From a phage, in the sequence record PZ445454.1: 64,000 bases of DNA. One strand, 5' to 3'. This document shows, in pieces, positions 3,929-24,407 of this stretch; positions within the stretch are counted from its first letter, which is position 1; the number at the start of each line of letters is the position of its first letter. The translations under genes and the position numbers were made by a program. The notes below the pieces were generated by a model. The model was not told where the DNA came from. It did not search any database and worked only from the letters and a program-made list of their open reading frames with translations.

Positions 3929-5275
3929 ATGAGTTCGAATATCTTCAGACTTGCTGATAGATTATTCAACCAACCTTTACTAGCCACTGAATCATTAGCT
4001 CACTCAGCAGCAACTTATGTGAATAACAGATTGCTGGGTGATGTCCAAGCAGCAGTAAACTTTGATAAACCCAAAGGTGAAGCAAGAAGTCTTTTAAAAG
4101 TAAAAGATGATATTGCTATTATCCCTATTATGGGTGGTTTAACTCACCGTATGACATTCATTGATGCAATGTGTACAGGTGGTTTAAGCTCTTATGAAGG
4201 TTTACGCAGAGGCTTTGACGAAGCTTTAGCAGATGAGTCAATTAAGACTATTGTTCTGCACATCGATTCTGGTGGTGGTGAAGCTTCAGGTTGCTTTGAA
4301 TTAGCACGTCACATTATGGCTTCAAGAGGCCAAAAGAAAATTATTGCTTATGTAGATGAGTTCGCTTGTTCCGCTGCATATGCTCTTGCATCTTCTGCTG
4401 AAGAAATTATTGCATCACCAGATGCAGATGTTGGTTCTATTGGTGTAATCATGGTTCATCAGGAATTAACTAAGGCATTTGAAAAGAATGGCGTAACAAT
4501 TAACGTCATCAAAGCTGGTGAGTTTAAAGGTATGGGTTCACCATTCCAAGCACTTTCAGAAGAAAGCAAAGAAAGACTTCAAAAGAGAATTAATGATACC
4601 TACGCAACCTTTACAGGTTTTGTAGCCGAATCTCGTAATATCTCTGAAGAAGCTGTAAAGAATACTGAGGCGAATGTTTATTCTGCTCAGGAAGCTCTTG
4701 AACTTGGTTTAATTAACTCAATCATGTCTCAAGATGATTTCTTAAATTACTTACAAGGTTCTGAAGAGGCTCCTGTAAGTTTAAACGTTAACAATTCAGG
4801 TGAAGAAATGACTGAACAAGAAAAGCAAGAACTAGAAGCTTTGCGTCTTCAGGTTGCTCAAATGAAAGCTAAAGAACAGGAAGCTGCTTTGTCAGATTTG
4901 ACTAATAAGATTTCTGCTTCTGCTGAAGCTTTTGGATTTGATGCAAAAGAAGCTGCAACGACTATTTTAGGTGCTGGTCTTGATAACCCTCTAAGTGTTC
5001 TGTTTATGAATGCTATGGAAGGTGCTAACCAGAAACTTAATGAAACTATCGCGTCCCATGCTTCTGCAATGGAAGAAAAAGAATCAGAAATCACCAAGCT
5101 GAAAGAAACTGCTGGTGCTGTTCTTGAACATTCCAACGCTATGGAAGAAGTGGGTAATGACGGCGAAGCTGATTTGGTTGAAGAAGAAAAAGAACCAGCT
5201 AAAAATGCTTCCGAAGACACCGCTGAACAACGCAAACTGGCTCTCCAGAATGCTCTAAAATCTCTTATCAAATAA
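3929..5275 (+). CDS. prohead protease (S49/ClpP-like) fused to acidic coiled-coil scaffold-like C-terminal half
   Basis: N-terminal half has S49-like signature (IVLHIDSGGGEASG, ACSAAYALASSAEEIIASPDADVGSIGV); C-terminal 200 aa Glu/Ala/Lys-rich; lies between portal and capsid. Confidence 0.6.
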   Translation: MSSNIFRLADRLFNQPLLATESLAHSAATYVNNRLLGDVQAAVNFDKPKGEARSLLKVKDDIAIIPIMGGLTHRMTFIDAMCTGGLSSYEGLRRGFDEALADESIKTIVLHIDSGGGEASGCFELARHIMASRGQKKIIAYVDEFACSAAYALASSAEEIIASPDADVGSIGVIMVHQELTKAFEKNGVTINVIKAGEFKGMGSPFQALSEESKERLQKRINDTYATFTGFVAESRNISEEAVKNTEANVYSAQEALELGLINSIMSQDDFLNYLQGSEEAPVSLNVNNSGEEMTEQEKQELEALRLQVAQMKAKEQEAALSDLTNKISASAEAFGFDAKEAATTILGAGLDNPLSVLFMNAMEGANQKLNETIASHASAMEEKESEITKLKETAGAVLEHSNAMEEVGNDGEADLVEEEKEPAKNASEDTAEQRKLALQNALKSLIK

Positions 5276-11258: not shown

Positions 11259-19274
<8,016 letters not shown>

Positions 19275-19276
19275 TA

Positions 19277-20425
19277 ATGGCAGTAGGTGAAATTCAAATT
19301 AGTGCCTTGCCTCAAGCAGCCTTACCGATTGACCTTAGTGATATCTTCCATCTTAAGCAGGGTATTGAGGATAAGAGATGTACTCTTGAGCAACTACTTG
19401 CTCCACACTCAAGCCTAAGAAATAACCCTCATGGTGTTACTAAGACACAAATTGGTTTAGATAATGTTATTAATGCTCTTCAGTTAGTTGCTGCAAATAA
19501 CTTATCAGATATTGTTAATGTAGCTGAGGCAAGAAAAAATCTACAGATTATGTCTTCAGAAGAGGTTAATAGCCTTATTCAACAGCATATTAATGACAAG
19601 AGCAACCCACACAATACAACTAAGGCGCAGGTTGGTTTAAGTAATGTCCAGAACTGGACAACATCTAACCTTTATAATGAAGATGCAGATAAGTATGCTA
19701 CAGCAAGAGCAGTAAATAACTTGTACAAGGCTGTTCAGGCTTCTTATCCAGTAGGTACTATCCATCTCTCTATGAATCCTGCAAACCCCTCTACATATTT
19801 AATTTGTGGAGGTACTTGGGAGTTAGTCTCAAAAGGGAGAGCACTTGTAGGTTATGATAGTGATTCTAGGCCAGTTGGTTCAACGTTTGGTTCACAGACT
19901 ACTGCACTGACGGTTAATAACATCCCTGCACATACCCACTCAGTGTACGTCACTGGTGGTGGTCACACTCATGGTGCAACGGCCTCTATCAGTGCTTTTG
20001 ATTATGGCACTAAAGGTACTACAACGTTTGACTACGGAACAAAGACCGTATCTACTTATGACTATGGCAACAGAACAACAAGTGCTGCTGGCTTAACACA
20101 AACAACATTCATTAACCGTGGCTATGCTGATGGTGGCTGGAGAGGTTTATCGGTTGAGGGGGCAAGCTATGACCCAAGAGCTACATTGACAACAGCTAAC
20201 AACCACACTCACTCTGTAGCAATTGGTGCACATAATCACACGGTTGGTATTGGTGCTCACAGCCATACTGTTGCAATTGGTTCCCACAACCACTCAGCAA
20301 CAGTAACAGTAACCGGAGCAGGTGAGCATTCACACTCTGGTACAACTGGTACAACTGGTTCTGGTCAAGCATTTAGTGTTGAACAGCCATCCTTCGTACT
20401 GTATGTATGGCAGAGAACAGCTTAA
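19277..20425 (+). CDS. tail fiber protein (short paralog) with His-x-His repeat tip
   Basis: N-terminal NPHxxTKxQxGLxNV repeats; C-terminal GAHNHTVGIGAHSHTVAIGSHNHS repeats; C-terminus GSGQAFSV...WQRTA shared with next gene. Confidence 0.65.
   Translation: MAVGEIQISALPQAALPIDLSDIFHLKQGIEDKRCTLEQLLAPHSSLRNNPHGVTKTQIGLDNVINALQLVAANNLSDIVNVAEARKNLQIMSSEEVNSLIQQHINDKSNPHNTTKAQVGLSNVQNWTTSNLYNEDADKYATARAVNNLYKAVQASYPVGTIHLSMNPANPSTYLICGGTWELVSKGRALVGYDSDSRPVGSTFGSQTTALTVNNIPAHTHSVYVTGGGHTHGATASISAFDYGTKGTTTFDYGTKTVSTYDYGNRTTSAAGLTQTTFINRGYADGGWRGLSVEGASYDPRATLTTANNHTHSVAIGAHNHTVGIGAHSHTVAIGSHNHSATVTVTGAGEHSHSGTTGTTGSGQAFSVEQPSFVLYVWQRTA
19920..20340 (+). repeat. His-x-His (HTHS/HNHT/HSHT) coding repeats in tail fiber tip
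   Basis: repeated cac-ac(t/c)-cac codon triplets encoding HxH, spaced by GIGA/VAIG. Confidence 0.6.
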
Positions 20426-20435
20426 TTTCTTTACA

Positions 20436-20455
20436 GGGGCTTTATAGCCCCTTTT
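20436..20455 (+). terminator. rho-independent terminator between tail fiber genes
   Basis: hairpin ggggct/agcccc then TTTT. Confidence 0.5.
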
Positions 20456-20471
20456 AAGAGGAAAATTTATA

Positions 20472-22826
20472 ATGGCAGATTACAAGTTGAGTGAATTAAA
20501 CTCAATCGACACAATCCGTTCAGACGACCTTCTTCATGTCAGGGTTAAAAAGAGACCTGAAATGCTAGGTGATGAAGACCGTCGAATGACCTATCAAGAC
20601 TTCTTAGCATCTTTTAAACTTGAGAGATTTGTTCAGATTGCTGGCAGCACTATGACGGGTGACTTAGGAATTGTCAAGTTACTTTATGGTGGTAAGGCAG
20701 TCTTTGACCCTACAGGTTCTTCTGAGATTAATATTGGGGATGCTTTAAAGGCTTTTAAAATCAACGCAAATGGTCTTAAGTTAACTGTTGCAGATGCTTC
20801 AAGGTCAGCAACTGTTTATCATACTCTGAATAAACCAAGTCCTAATGAACTTGGCATGAGAACTAATGAAGAGAATGATGCAAGATATGCAAGATTAGCT
20901 GTAAATAACACCTTTAGAGCCACTCAGACTATTGTTGCTGACAATGAAGGGTTAATTATTAAGAATTTGACACAAAATCAACCTTTGTATATCCGTGGCG
21001 TGGACACTGCGAATGTATCTAGGTGGTGGTTAGGTGTAGGTGGCATGGACTCTACTGATGTATCCTTAAACAATAGCTTCTCTGGGACACAAATTACTCT
21101 TTCGAGGTCAGTGATTACGGCTAACAAGAATCTCCAAATCACTGGTCAAGTTCAGCCTTCTGACTTCTCTAACTTAGATGCTAGATACTTTACTCAGACA
21201 GCAGCTAATCAGAGATTTGCACAGTTAACTGCTAATAATACTTTTAGTGGTTTAAATACATTCAATAATGCTGTTAACATCATCTCTAATTCTGCTGCTA
21301 TCATGCTGCAAAATAAATCTACAAATGAATCTTTATTCATCCTAGCAAAAGATAGTGAAAATAATAACTTGTGGTATCTTGGTAAGGGTAGTGCAAACTA
21401 TAGTACCACATTACACGATTATAAGGGCAACACCTCGATGGTCTTAGACTCGTCTGGTGCTACATTCAGCAAGACTGTAAAAATCACTGGACAGGTTCAG
21501 CCTTCAGATTGGGCTAACATTGACGCTAGATACATCCCAGCAGGAACTTTGAGTAATCTCGCTAAGCTAAGTGATGCAAACACTTTCAGGTCTGCACAGA
21601 TTATTAATCAGAATGGCTCATTATTACAGCTAAAGAATACTACACAAGATGGAGAGCTATACTTGGCTGGTTATAATGTTGATGGTGTTAGAAGGTGGTA
21701 CATTGGGAATGGGGAAGCATCCAACCCAGAAAGACTTATTATCCATAACAGCAAAACTGCAACTACGATTTATATGATAGATGATTTCTTGCTGACTAAA
21801 ACTGTTAGAATCATTGGTCAAGTTCAGCCTTCTGATTGGACTAACTTAGATGCTAGATACTACGTTCAATCTTCAGCAGATGCGAAGTACATCTGGTCAG
21901 CAGTCAGGGAGACAGTAAGAGCAGAGGATGGTGGTGTAGCTTGGAATAAACCTTCAGGAATCTATCTTGAGATGCTTAAGGGTGGTGGGTCAAACCGTTT
22001 AGTCTCGCACATGTTCGTTAATACGGGAGCATCAACACCTGCTGCACAATTGATGTTTGATTATAGAAATGGTGGGATGTGGTACAGAACAGCCAGAGAC
22101 GCACATGGTTTTGAGGAGGATTGGTCTAAGATTTACACAGAGGCTCAGAAACCAACCCCTTCAGAGATTGGTGCATACACTAAAACTGAAACTGACCAGA
22201 AGATTGCACAGGCAGTAAGTGACTCTACAGACCTTAATAAAATCTATCCAGTGGGTATTGTGACATGGTTTAACAGTAATGTTGACCCTAATACAGCACT
22301 GCCTGGTCTAACTTGGACGTACCTCAACAATGGTGTTGGTAGAACTATCAGAATTGCAGCAGCAAATGGTTCAGATGTTGCTACAACTGGTGGTTCGGAC
22401 TCTGTGACGTTAGCTGTTGGGAACTTGCCTTCACACACGCACAGTTTTTCTGCTACCACTTCATCTTTTGACTACGGAACAAAAAGCACTAACACGACTG
22501 GTTCTCACGCTCACTCTGTAAGTGGCTCTACTTCATCTGCTGGTCACCACAACCACGCTATCTCGTGGATTGGTCAGAACTCTACACACTATTCTGGTGG
22601 TGGTGGTGGTAGAATCGGTACAGGTCCGGGTTACACTGATGGGGGTGGTGACCACGCGCATTCAATTAGTGGTACTGCCGCCTATGCTGGTGACCATGCT
22701 CACAGTGTTGGTATTGGTGCTCACAGCCATACAGTTAGCGGTAACACTGGTGGTACAGGTTCTGGTTCAGCATTTAGTGTTACTAACCAGTTCTACAAGT
22801 TAATGGCTTGGGTGAGAACTGCTTAA
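20472..22826 (+). CDS. tail fiber protein (long paralog) with triplicated internal motif and His-x-His repeat tip
   Basis: three copies of I(T/I)GQVQPSD(F/W)xN(L/I)DARY; C-terminal HTHS, HAHS, HSHT repeats and GSGSAFSV...WVRTA ending. Confidence 0.7.
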   Translation: MADYKLSELNSIDTIRSDDLLHVRVKKRPEMLGDEDRRMTYQDFLASFKLERFVQIAGSTMTGDLGIVKLLYGGKAVFDPTGSSEINIGDALKAFKINANGLKLTVADASRSATVYHTLNKPSPNELGMRTNEENDARYARLAVNNTFRATQTIVADNEGLIIKNLTQNQPLYIRGVDTANVSRWWLGVGGMDSTDVSLNNSFSGTQITLSRSVITANKNLQITGQVQPSDFSNLDARYFTQTAANQRFAQLTANNTFSGLNTFNNAVNIISNSAAIMLQNKSTNESLFILAKDSENNNLWYLGKGSANYSTTLHDYKGNTSMVLDSSGATFSKTVKITGQVQPSDWANIDARYIPAGTLSNLAKLSDANTFRSAQIINQNGSLLQLKNTTQDGELYLAGYNVDGVRRWYIGNGEASNPERLIIHNSKTATTIYMIDDFLLTKTVRIIGQVQPSDWTNLDARYYVQSSADAKYIWSAVRETVRAEDGGVAWNKPSGIYLEMLKGGGSNRLVSHMFVNTGASTPAAQLMFDYRNGGMWYRTARDAHGFEEDWSKIYTEAQKPTPSEIGAYTKTETDQKIAQAVSDSTDLNKIYPVGIVTWFNSNVDPNTALPGLTWTYLNNGVGRTIRIAAANGSDVATTGGSDSVTLAVGNLPSHTHSFSATTSSFDYGTKSTNTTGSHAHSVSGSTSSAGHHNHAISWIGQNSTHYSGGGGGRIGTGPGYTDGGGDHAHSISGTAAYAGDHAHSVGIGAHSHTVSGNTGGTGSGSAFSVTNQFYKLMAWVRTA
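21130..21870 (+). repeat. three dispersed direct repeats inside long tail fiber gene
   Basis: near-identical about 47-nt segments (ggtcaagttcagccttctga...ttagatgctagatac) at about 21140 and 21812, diverged copy at about 21484. Confidence 0.6.
22425..22745 (+). repeat. His-x-His coding repeats in long tail fiber tip
   Basis: LPSHTHSF, GSHAHSV, GHHNHAI, GDHAHSI, GDHAHSVGIGAHSHTV. Confidence 0.6.
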
Positions 22827-22833
22827 TCCCTTG

Positions 22834-22862
22834 TTGACTGATTGTTAAGATGGTGTTAATAT
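22834..22862 (+). promoter_or_regulatory. sigma70-like promoter candidate TTGACT-N17-TAATAT overlapped by 9-bp inverted repeat
   Basis: TTGACT then 17 nt then TAATAT; inverted repeat aagatggtg (about 22847) / caccatctt (about 22879) spans the -10 and start region. Confidence 0.4.
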
Positions 22863-22905
22863 TCTTTATGGGTATTCTCACCATCTTGGCTGATGAGGTG
22901 ATTAA

Positions 22906-23103
22906 ATGCCTACAATCCTAGCAATTCTTCTAAAAAATCTAGGTAGCTTCTTCTGGAAACTCATTTTATCCCTTCTAAGTGAATACATGATTGAGAAAGT
23001 GTTCTTTAGGCTTGCAAGATATCTTGCGAGTAAAACAGACACACCTATTGATGATGAGTTCGTAGATAACTTAGAAAAAGCTTTTAAGGGGGAGAATAAA
23101 TGA
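22906..23103 (+). CDS. small hydrophobic protein (membrane; holin or fiber-associated candidate)
   Basis: 65 aa; hydrophobic N-terminus ILAILLKNLGSFFWKLILSLL. Confidence 0.4.
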   Translation: MPTILAILLKNLGSFFWKLILSLLSEYMIEKVFFRLARYLASKTDTPIDDEFVDNLEKAFKGENK

Positions 23104-23471
23104 AGTGGCTAGAGGAAGCTTTTAAAAATAATATTGGTGCAATTGTAGTTGGTATTTTTAGTGTTATTGGGATGTATACCACCATGCAAGTCTCGGATGG
23201 TAAGCAAGAAGTGTCTATCACAACAAAGTTACAGCAGTTAGATAATTATTCCAAAAGTAATTATTCAGCTATTCGTGATTTACAGTCTGATATGAGGCTG
23301 CTTCAGCTAGGGATGGAGAACCAGAAAGTCCAGTTAGAGAATGTTAAGGGTGAGAACGCAAAACTTACTAAGACTCTTGATAAATTCTCTGATAGTGTGA
23401 ACAATCTGGCTCAATCAGTATCAGCCCTCCAAGCTATTACTGAAAAGAACACAAAGAATACTGAAAAGTAA
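23100..23471 (+). CDS. membrane-anchored coiled-coil protein
   Basis: 123 aa; N-terminal TM IGAIVVGIFSVIGMY then heptad-like QLDN...LQLGMENQ region. Confidence 0.4.
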   Translation: MKWLEEAFKNNIGAIVVGIFSVIGMYTTMQVSDGKQEVSITTKLQQLDNYSKSNYSAIRDLQSDMRLLQLGMENQKVQLENVKGENAKLTKTLDKFSDSVNNLAQSVSALQAITEKNTKNTEK

Positions 23472-23477
23472 AGTTTA

Positions 23478-23506
23478 AGGCTCCTTTTTACGGGAGCCTT
23501 TTTTGT
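23478..23506. terminator. terminator hairpin between convergent blocks
   Basis: aaggctcc / ggagcctt stem followed by TTTTTTGTTTT on plus strand. Confidence 0.6.
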
Positions 23507-23507
23507 T

Positions 23508-24407
23508 TTATTTACCTACTGACAAAGGTGCTTCAATCTTCCCTGCATGTTGATAGTTGCTAATACCACCAATAAAGTCACTTGCAGTAAGATGTTTCAG
23601 GTCACTTAAAGTATTAAGTTGTAAACCAATCTCAAAAGTAGGTGCATGGAACTCTTCATTGCTCATCAGTTCATAAACCTGCTTCATATGGTTCTGATAA
23701 ATCTGAGTATCCCCAAAGACACCTATCAAATATCGTGGAGTGTATCCAGTCATCTTACAAAGAACTTCCAGAATAAAACCATAAGACGCAATGTTAAAGG
23801 GAAGTCCTAGAAAGGTGTCTACAGAACGCTGATACCATTGTAAGTCAACTTCACCTTCATTAGTGATATAAATCTGAAACAGAACATGACAAGGTGCTAA
23901 AGCCATTGAGTTTGCTGCAATATCTGCTGCATTCCAAGCATTAACTAGCATGTAACGGTCTGTGATATCACCCTTCATCTTTGTTACTAAGGTCTCTAAC
24001 TGGTCTACAACACAACCATTATGACCTTCAAAGTTTCTCCACTGAACTCCGTAGATTCTTCCACCTGCATCTTCTAACCAATCCTGTTCAGAAGAATAAT
24101 TAGAGCTTAACCAGCGTTTAAAATCATCTGACCAGATTGTCCAGCGTTCTCCGTCATTTTCACCCCAAGTACGGTAACGAAGTTCACCAAGCTTATTCTC
24201 ACCGTTCAGGAACCATAAAGCTTCCCCAATAACTTGCCGTGTAAACACCTGTTTAGATGTTAAGAGCGGGAAACCAGTTCGCATATCAAAACGAAACTGA
24301 GGTGGAGCAAATGCAGAGATAACATCTCCAGTTCGTGTAGTACGCAGTTCGCCAACAGATAAAACATGGTTCAGGATATTTTTGTAACTTGTATCTGCTT
24401 GTGACAT
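23508..24407 (-). CDS. thyA: thymidylate synthase (or related dUMP/dCMP pyrimidine C5-modifying enzyme)
   Basis: ThyA-like signatures: catalytic-Cys region LAPCHVLFQIY, and YQRSVDTFLGLPFNIASY. Confidence 0.7.
   Translation of the reverse strand: MSQADTSYKNILNHVLSVGELRTTRTGDVISAFAPPQFRFDMRTGFPLLTSKQVFTRQVIGEALWFLNGENKLGELRYRTWGENDGERWTIWSDDFKRWLSSNYSSEQDWLEDAGGRIYGVQWRNFEGHNGCVVDQLETLVTKMKGDITDRYMLVNAWNAADIAANSMALAPCHVLFQIYITNEGEVDLQWYQRSVDTFLGLPFNIASYGFILEVLCKMTGYTPRYLIGVFGDTQIYQNHMKQVYELMSNEEFHAPTFEIGLQLNTLSDLKHLTASDFIGGISNYQHAGKIEAPLSVGK

Follow-up and report, generated by a model that had tools for sequence, protein, structure and literature searches.

Two adjacent tail fibre genes occupy positions 19277-22826 of a 64,000-nt stretch of phage DNA (record PZ445454.1, hereafter the window), and both encode proteins whose C-termini are rich in HxH motifs. 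What are these fibres, do their tips hold metal, and how did two such tips come to lie side by side? A first reading made from the sequence alone (the sequence-only reading) had proposed two receptor-binding fibres with metal-stabilised tips, consistent with duplication and divergence of a host-range determinant. Very probably, the two genes encode the short tail fibre (STF, gp26) and the long tail fibre (LTF, gp27) of the Felixounavirus Bas63, or of a phage nearly identical to it, both with tips of the T4 gp37 type, the tips being an exchangeable module rather than the product of a recent local duplication.

Bas63 is Escherichia phage JohannRWettstein, for which a cryo-EM study appeared in Sci Adv in 2025 (PMC12609058; baseplate PDB 9NDY). 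Three baseplate proteins encoded upstream of the fibres match Bas63 chains in 9NDY, and the two that were checked residue by residue are both 100% identical. A 285-aa ORF equals gp24 (gp024) in 285/285 residues, and the 100-aa product of 18972..19274 (+) equals chain S, the 'LTF platform protein (gp025)', in 100/100 residues. Gp25 is the point where the long fibre attaches in Bas63 (PMC12609058). A 489-aa ORF scores 1057 bits against gp23 (gp023). The gene order wedge 2 - wedge 1 - LTF platform - STF - LTF, with proteins matching Bas63, is the same in approximately 35 related loci, and the closest match in the phage collection is 96-97% identical to the window. The PDB sequence set has no fibre chains; the identity of the fibre genes with those of Bas63 is inferred from residue numbering and from the identity of the flanks. 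The Bas63 paper describes seven di-His motifs in STF gp26 and six in LTF gp27, including an HHxH at H692/H693/H695 (PMC12609058). ORF lengths, di-His counts and the H692/H693/H695 numbering in the window match these exactly, with no detectable difference.

Both fibre ORFs are intact on the + strand, as are all features given below, and lie exactly where the sequence-only reading had placed them. The STF gene (382 aa) spans 19277..20425 and the LTF gene (784 aa) 20472..22826, stop codons included. Ribosome-binding sites precede both (GGAG 5' of ATG 19277, GAGG 5' of ATG 20472). A hairpin followed by a T run (AGGGGC-TTTATA-GCCCCT, 20435..20455) can be read from the intergenic sequence, past the STF stop codon and ahead of the ribosome-binding site of the LTF gene; it scores under the threshold of the terminator scan. 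A promoter scan of 18800-23600 returned 11 sites against 11.6 expected, giving no sign of an internal promoter.

That there are two fibres with gp37-type tips is right, and the literature has it already. Reports on Felix O1 (2010) and VpaE1 (2015) had recognised both fibres as gp37 homologues, and in the 2025 Bas63 study the virion carries the two of them, each with a tip made of collar, needle and head that resembles 2XGF (PMC12609058). Tip architecture was obtained there by cryo-EM with fitted AlphaFold 3 models, and the reversal of the chain was described (PMC12609058). Orthologous pairs with the same synteny as in the window are Felix O1 gp76/gp77 (FO1a gp75/gp76), VpaE1 gp74/gp75 and Sf14 gp52/gp53, their head cassettes being different. 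Our contribution is a genus-wide view of heads that are exchanged rather than slowly diverging, without an adjacent chaperone; otherwise no new biology is added.

The STF matches phrog_2097 (tail fiber, E 1e-128). Its shaft (19424..19647) contains two copies of an NPHxxTKxQ(I/V)GLxNV repeat (19424-19467 and 19604-19647). The collar domain follows (19736..19930, aa ~154-218, YPVGTIHL...), which can be aligned to both T4 gp10 and the collar of gp37. Pfam Gp10_C reaches 65.5 bits at aa 154-260 (cutoff 27), and gp10 entries in the PDB match as well. Of the seven HxH motifs (residues 219, 230, 310, 319, 328, 337 and 351), the first two belong to a descending needle strand with (F/Y)DYG(T/N)(K/R) repeats (19931..20071, aa ~219-265), whose limits are approximate and were placed by alignment to T4 gp37. 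The remaining five sit in the ascending strand (20198..20341, aa ~308-355), where the first four are spaced 9 residues apart and the DNA forms a direct repeat, D1, with a 27-nt period. Between the two strands lies a variable segment of distal needle and head (20072..20197, aa ~266-307) with the lowest conservation of the protein, 0.30-0.35 among 29 sequences of the genus; the head type of the window phage is FINRGYADGGW. The C-terminal strand GTTGSGQAFSVEQPSFVLYVWQRTA (20342..20422) presumably returns to the collar and is conserved with the LTF and with the ...AFNYIVRLA of T4 and lambda, the common pattern being AF..(V/I)...R.A.

The LTF matches phrog_4277 over its full length, and its Pfam domains are three copies of gp37_trimer, gp37_C and a weak Gp10_C. 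The N-terminal baseplate-binding region (20472..20891, aa 1-140) is well conserved (0.80-0.96), and the second fibre of distant Ounavirinae retains a recognisable version of it. In the shaft (20892..21920), variable beta-helix blocks are separated by three conserved linkers, TGQVQPSD(F/W)xN(L/I)DARY, so that conservation alternates; the three gp37_trimer matches and a direct repeat, D2, with a period of 327-345 nt fall here. The same pattern of variable blocks and conserved linkers has been reported for the Bas63 LTF (PMC12609058). Next come a gp37_C domain similar to the fibre S of phage Mu (21921..22229, aa ~484-586; PF12604, E 1e-13; PDB 8JU3 residues 335-426, E 2e-22) and a collar (22236..22427, aa ~589-652, YPVGIVTW...), which at 22.2 bits stays under the Gp10_C cutoff of 27 and in the alignment runs collinear with the collars of the STF, T4 and Mulock. 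Six HxH motifs (residues 655, 679, 693, 728, 742 and 751) are divided between a descending strand (22428..22559, aa ~653-696; HxH 655 and 679, then HHNH at 692-695) and a region comprising the ascending strand (728, 742, 751) and the C-terminal strand GSGSAFSVTNQFYKLMAWVRTA (22647..22823). The head cassette between them (22560..22646, aa ~697-725, SWIGQNSTHYSGGGGGRIGTGPGYTDGG) is conserved at 0.33; it is of the type SWIGQNSTHYSGGGGG in the window phage, and the genus has at least six head types. Variability in both fibre genes is concentrated in the heads and in the beta-helix blocks of the LTF.

The homology of the two HxH-rich ends is borne out: STF 157-382 and LTF 592-784 align with 31% identity and many gaps (BLASTP, E 6e-13), giving a common C-terminal module of about 200 aa in each fibre. 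The peptides that had been quoted are present, and both fibres share the terminal GSG(Q/S)AFSV...W(Q/V)RTA. The 7 and 6 HxH motifs compare with means of 1.0 and 0.5 in shuffled sequences, and 0/20000 composition-preserving shuffles reach the observed counts. The module is larger than first described, as it begins at the collar (YPVG...), some 60 residues before the first HxH. The further statement that the N-terminal parts differ holds at the level of sequence, where hhalign with very shallow alignments (Neff ~1.2) found only a weak match of 27 columns at E 0.031; for structure, the Bas63 paper reports conserved N-terminal baseplate-binding domains (PMC12609058). Single-sequence AlphaFold2 monomer models of the two tips had pLDDT values of 31.9 and 36.8, too low to be of use.

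Comparison with the T4 gp37 tip (2XGF, gp37 residues 785-1026) supports the assignment of both C-termini as receptor-binding tips of the gp37 type. Sequence homology to both is significant, with approximately 33-36% identity: in a phmmer search of the PDB, STF 146-352 matches 2XGF 18-229 (E 8e-15) and LTF 652-763 matches 2XGF 104-218 (E 5e-17). The order of elements is that of gp37 in both fibres, namely collar, descending strand with HxH and FDYGTK, head, an ascending strand with HxH and VGIGAHxHTV, and a putative C-terminal return strand. Together with the presence of both fibres on the Bas63 virion by cryo-EM (PMC12609058), these matches bear out the proposal of two distinct fibres with receptor-binding tips. 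Differences from T4 exist as well. The T4 C-terminus reads NIAFNYIVRLA, whereas the window fibres are longer and carry GSGxAFSV...W.RTA; the T4 long tail fibre consists of four proteins, while each window fibre carries its tip on one polypeptide; and T4 uses OmpC as receptor, Bas63 the LPS core.

Do the two tips descend from one tip duplicated in tandem inside the Felixounavirus lineage? The genes are adjacent on the same strand, both are present in all felixounavirus loci surveyed, and their tips share the collar-needle-head architecture as well as the C-terminal variant. Sequence scores do not support duplication and divergence as it had been put forward, since neither tip resembles the other more than it resembles those of unrelated phages. 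The comparison of the STF tip with the LTF tip gives 96 bits (33% identity). The STF tip reaches 119 bits with Citrobacter phage phiNP and 97 with T4, and the LTF tip 145 bits with gp26 of Klebsiella phage Mulock and 107 with T4. A nucleotide alignment, proposed for dating the duplication, was confined to 49 nt, the only alignable stretch. Moreover, distant Ounavirinae have an HxH tip in the STF ortholog only; their second fibre keeps the LTF N-terminus, its distal part is devoid of HxH, and hence the LTF tip looks later acquired. An ancient duplication followed by replacement of cassettes would give the same picture today. Weighing these points, we regard tandem duplication and divergence within the lineage as unlikely.

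The best explanation of the sequence comparisons is that the tips belong to a widespread, exchangeable module. The same module occurs in lambda Stf (orf-314), in the collar fibre of phiNP and in Mulock gp26, that is, in siphoviruses and other phages. In lambda and phiNP the ending is ...IVRLA and a tail fibre assembly gene comes next; Mulock gp26 has the ...W.RTA ending of the window fibres, few HxH and no adjacent assembly gene. Within the module, the head segment acts like an exchangeable cassette across the genus, between genes and between phage families, with conserved arms that encode HxH and FDYGTK on either side. Felix O1 carries one head type in both fibres, with near-identical head segments, and its two genes have approximately 200 nt in common (81-91% identity, the longest exact stretch reaching 113 nt); the window phage has two unrelated heads. 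The VpaE1-type phages L015 and L018 have a T4-like head, unlike the window phage, and the LTF gene of L015, a felixounavirus, shares 275 nt with T4 gene 37 at 94% nucleotide identity, direct evidence in the genus that cassettes have passed horizontally from T4-like phages, which speaks against the tandem duplication.

The window phage itself shows a single possible trace of cassette exchange. The 26-nt run GTTGGTATTGGTGCTCACAGCCATAC at 20243..20268 (+) in the STF gene, encoding VGIGAHSHT, recurs without a mismatch at 22707-22732 of the LTF gene. Given the peptide and the local codon usage, the chance of all 8 codons matching is approximately 0.0012.

Concerning metal, T4 gp37 holds seven irons along its needle, and its His pair H929/H931 is essential (PMC6957217). 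With the iron-coordinating HxH motifs of T4 at 883, 915, 929, 966, 980, 989 and 998 as reference, the LTF has six of the seven in register (883, 915, 929, 966, 980, 989), its residues 679 and 693 aligning with 915 and 929, and lacks the seventh. In the STF five of the seven are in register (883, 966, 980, 989, 998), and there are two extra motifs without T4 counterpart. Four of its five ascending motifs align with 966, 980, 989 and 998, the head-proximal descending motifs 915 and 929 are missing, and HMMER and MAFFT disagree on whether residue 219 or 230 corresponds to 883. From this register we infer that the STF and LTF needles may be stabilised by metal. Owing to the two T4 motifs lost and two extra gained, metal stoichiometry and geometry are uncertain for the STF. 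The cryo-EM density of the Bas63 fibres was described as 'unsuitable for modeling rotamers' (PMC12609058).

The HxH motifs could instead be a structural repeat of a beta-rich fibre that serves, for example, packing or hydrogen bonding only. In favour of such a reading is the departure of the STF motif pattern from T4. Most of the motifs, however, align position by position with essential, iron-coordinating T4 motifs. Across ten tips from six phages, with an overall identity of 27-40%, the VGIGAHxHT core keeps both of its motifs without exception, and two more His pairs hardly vary. A role without metal thus seems very improbable to us.

That one fibre gene is a non-expressed or decaying remnant hardly deserves consideration, as neither ORF is interrupted, each has a ribosome-binding site, both genes are conserved and intact in most of approximately 35 related loci, both fibres sit on Bas63 virions (PMC12609058), and mass spectrometry detected both fibres in VpaE1 and Sf14.

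Folding of T4 gp37 requires gp38 and gp57A (PMC6957217). A tblastn search of the 64-kb window and of L007, L015 and L018 with T4 gp38 and lambda Tfa gave no significant match, and the two ORFs downstream of the LTF gene match only PHROGs of unknown function and no chaperone. As no gp38- or Tfa-like gene is seen in the window, folding of these tips may not be fully T4-like, although such a chaperone is an accessory and does not define the gp37 fold. We give about an even chance to a broader proposal, in which the HxH/FDYGTK arms would be portable recombination anchors for heads, both between the two fibre genes of a genome and between Felixounavirus and Tequatrovirus, and STF and LTF a two-slot receptor system that folds without the gp38/Tfa chaperones needed by donor tips. 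If true, the two slots could hold the same or different specificities.

In our working model, each fibre would be a homotrimer held to the baseplate by its N-terminus, with wedge protein 2 carrying the STF and the gp25 platform the LTF; presence on the virion and domain architecture are taken from the literature. Beyond the collar, the descending and ascending strands of each chain would form the needle, a six-stranded barrel in the trimer whose HxH pairs would face inward, one above the other along the axis. At the turn would sit the small, variable head, and the C-terminal strand would run back to the collar. The six His that a trimer contributes at each HxH level may, if T4 is a guide, coordinate one metal ion and thereby rigidify the needle; in T4 the ion is iron, in an octahedral His6 site. 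Contact with the receptor would be made by the head and the distal needle; for Bas63 that receptor lies in the LPS core, according to the literature. As the two heads of the window phage are unrelated, the fibres probably read different surface features. Engagement is possibly sequential, LTF first and STF second, the order being our suggestion.

Felix O1-like phages serve in Salmonella typing, biocontrol and phage therapy, and it is these two fibres that determine their host range. With both tips being apparent gp37-type needles with swappable heads, exchange of the head between the conserved HxH arms may offer a handle for retargeting. As a minor observation, an out-of-frame 93-aa ORF (22522-22803) and the antisense ORFs of the region were discarded, since the repetitive use of G/H/T/S codons accounts for them.

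Both fibre genes lie at the end of an operon for a myovirus baseplate, after ORFs encoding a Baseplate_J protein, a DUF2612-like wedge protein and a protein of 100 aa. The short tail fibre (STF, 382 aa; 19277-20425, +) and the long tail fibre (LTF, 784 aa; 20472-22826, +) are encoded exactly where the sequence-only reading had placed two adjacent fibre ORFs, each with an upstream Shine-Dalgarno sequence. Seven HxH motifs are found in the STF and six in the LTF, all of them confined to the last ~165 and the last ~130 residues, respectively. Shuffling predicts 1.0 and 0.5 motifs, and the observed counts were reached in 0 of 20000 shuffles. STF residues 157-382 and LTF residues 592-784 share 31% identity (BLASTP, E 6e-13). 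The homologous module extends beyond the HxH stretch, from a collar domain (YPVG...; Pfam Gp10_C match) to the C-terminus, where both proteins have the ending GSGxAFSV...W.RTA. Homologous, HxH-rich C-termini with a related terminal GSG(Q/S)AFSV...W(Q/V)RTA, as described earlier, are hereby confirmed. Outside this module, the LTF is made up of three gp37_trimer repeats plus one gp37_C / Mu fibre-S-like domain. Monomer structure predictions of the two tips reached a pLDDT of 32 and 37, too low for use. An ORF of 93 aa at 22522-22803 (+, other frame), rich in V, L and T and overlapping the LTF needle, is not a gene but a side effect of the GGT/CAC/ACT periodicity in codon composition.

The phage is a member of the genus Felixounavirus; its best matches in the databases have 95-97% identity. 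Of the proteins encoded upstream of the fibres, those of 285 aa and 100 aa show full-length identity (100%) with two Bas63 chains of the baseplate structure 9NDY, 'Wedge protein 1 (gp024)' and 'LTF platform protein (gp025)', and the one of 489 aa reaches 1057 bits with 'Wedge protein 2 (gp023)' of the same structure. According to a cryo-EM study of 2025, the next two genes of Bas63 encode STF gp26 and LTF gp27, and both fibres end in a tip like that of T4 gp37, with collar, HxH needle and head; seven di-His motifs were reported in the STF and six in the LTF, including an HHxH at H692, H693 and H695 (PMC12609058). HxH counts and residue numbers in our phage are exactly those published. Together with the upstream proteins, this identifies the finding as the published case itself. 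Even earlier, the C-terminal parts of the two fibres had been described as homologous to gp37, in Felix O1 (2010) and VpaE1 (2015), and mass spectrometry detected both fibre proteins in virions (VpaE1 2015 paper; Sf14). The tip observation is thus correct and its reading mostly right, but already known for this very phage.

By sequence, STF and LTF match the T4 gp37 tip structure 2XGF with E 8e-15 and E 5e-17. T4 gp37 has HxH motifs at positions 883, 915, 929, 966, 980, 989 and 998; seven iron atoms are bound by these motifs, of which the pair H929/H931 is essential (PMC6957217). Six of the seven are retained in register by the LTF and five by the STF, which has two extra motifs, EHSHS at 351 and, within an insertion close to the collar, GHTHG at 230. 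LTF H693/H695 is the counterpart of the essential T4 pair H929/H931. In ten tips from six phages, the ascending strand has an essentially invariant VGIGAHxHT core.

Each fibre would be a trimer anchored by its N-terminus, with a needle of six strands, descending and ascending, contributed by three chains. HxH pairs would face inward and stack along the needle axis, and one metal ion per HxH level, by analogy with T4, would stiffen the needle. We infer metal binding by these tips from this likeness; in the published Bas63 fibre density, side chains are not resolved (PMC12609058). Receptor contact would be made by the variable head at the turn. Bas63 depends completely on an intact LPS core; it does not depend on outer membrane proteins. 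Since the two heads of our phage are unrelated, STF and LTF probably recognise different features; receptor assignment and order of fibre engagement are, again, what we infer.

Variability within the genus is concentrated in the heads (STF aa ~261-320, LTF aa ~681-740), and the beta-helix blocks of the LTF are variable as well (29 distinct genus sequences), the same distribution as reported in the Bas63 study (PMC12609058). Among 33 IMG/VR and three GenBank loci, at least six head types occur in each gene.

Duplication and divergence, as first proposed for the two fibres, is not the best description. Under one scoring scheme, the STF tip scores 96 bits against the LTF tip, 119 against Citrobacter phage phiNP and 97 against T4, and the LTF tip scores 145 against Klebsiella phage Mulock gp26 and 107 against T4, i.e. 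96 bits between the two tips versus 97-145 against other phages. Moreover, three distant Ounavirinae loci (L039, L040, L041) have an HxH tip in the STF ortholog only. Their second fibre keeps the LTF N-terminal region (~28-30% identity, ~130 aa) followed by an unrelated distal part without HxH, and in L039 further fibre-like ORFs come after it. An ancient STF/LTF duplication, later overwritten, may still lie behind the pair. In evolutionary terms, modular exchange should replace simple duplication as the reading of the two fibres.

Signs of such exchange are seen at two levels. STF and LTF heads of the Felix O1 clade are of one type (VGGRYGGDSIGGKHRVQVSG...), with ~200 nt at 81-91% identity. 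The shared cassette lies within 4280-4717 and 6670-7107 in L007 (Salmonella phage FO1a) and is also present in the related loci L009, L011, L017 and L022, with the longest exact run, up to 113 nt, in L009. We take this as a sign that the two fibre genes recently underwent exchange or gene conversion; a mention of this head sharing was not found in the literature cited here. In two VpaE1-like IMG/VR felixounaviruses, L015 and L018, the distal needle and head, located in the last 600 nt of an otherwise ordinary Felixounavirus LTF gene, match T4 gene 37 with a nucleotide identity of 94% (L015, over 275 nt) and 88% (L018; span 275-284 nt for the two), with the L015 breakpoints near the segments encoding FDYGTK and VGIGAH. 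Given the head types, the Felix O1 sharing and the T4-like L015 head, heads behave like cassettes set between conserved arms. For T-even gene 37, Tetart, Desplats and Krisch reportedly proposed in 1998 that recombination takes place at conserved His-box motifs, so the cassette principle itself would not be new. In our phage, STF and LTF genes have a 49-nt stretch in common at the DNA level and nothing more. It includes an identical 26-nt run (GTTGGTATTGGTGCTCACAGCCATAC; 20243-20268 in STF, 22707-22732 in LTF) encoding VGIGAHSHT. Given the peptide and local codon usage, the chance of all eight codons matching is ~0.0012, and relatives have identical runs of 20-27 nt at the same place. This run may serve as an anchor for recombination or may represent a micro-conversion tract.

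T4 gp37 requires gp38 and gp57A (PMC6957217). In lambda and phiNP, a tail fibre assembly gene comes after the homologue, whereas here two small ORFs of unknown-function families follow: one of 65 aa with a hydrophobic N-terminus (22906-23103) and one of 123 aa that has a hydrophobic segment at its N-terminus and a region resembling a coiled coil (23100-23471). Both match only PHROGs of unknown function, the counterpart of the latter is annotated as holin in phage CL1, and neither looks like a recognisable fibre chaperone. A gp38/Tfa homologue was detectable neither in the 64-kb window nor in related loci, even where these have a T4-derived head. Felixounavirus and Mulock tips have a longer C-terminal strand (...GSGxAFSV...W.RTA) than T4 and lambda (...NIAFNYIVRLA), which may, speculatively, be linked to chaperone independence.

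The rightward structural operon ends in a strong terminator-like hairpin (9-bp stem and T run; 23477-23500), directly after which GC skew and coding strand flip, with thyA (thymidylate synthase) and DHFR (dihydrofolate reductase) on the minus strand. The 46-nt gap that separates the STF stop codon from the LTF ribosome-binding site holds a further hairpin, small and GC-rich (AGGGGC-TTTATA-GCCCCT, then TTTT; 20435-20455); this one scores under the terminator-scan threshold and could serve readthrough attenuation or mRNA stabilisation.

In a felixounavirus group that includes O157 typing phage 15 and comprises L006 (vB_EcoM_E9), L026-L029, L031-L032 and further database matches, the LTF collar is kept (~95% identity) and followed by a different, longer head (NRGTMEITG...FGYFRSD...), with only four HxH in the whole LTF. 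The longest LTF ORF of L006 (2506-5124), L015, L018 and L027 begins inside the STF 3' end (MCGREQLNFFTG...), as does the annotated LTF CDS of E9. As MADYKLSELNSI is the conserved LTF start, the upstream start is probably an annotation artefact.
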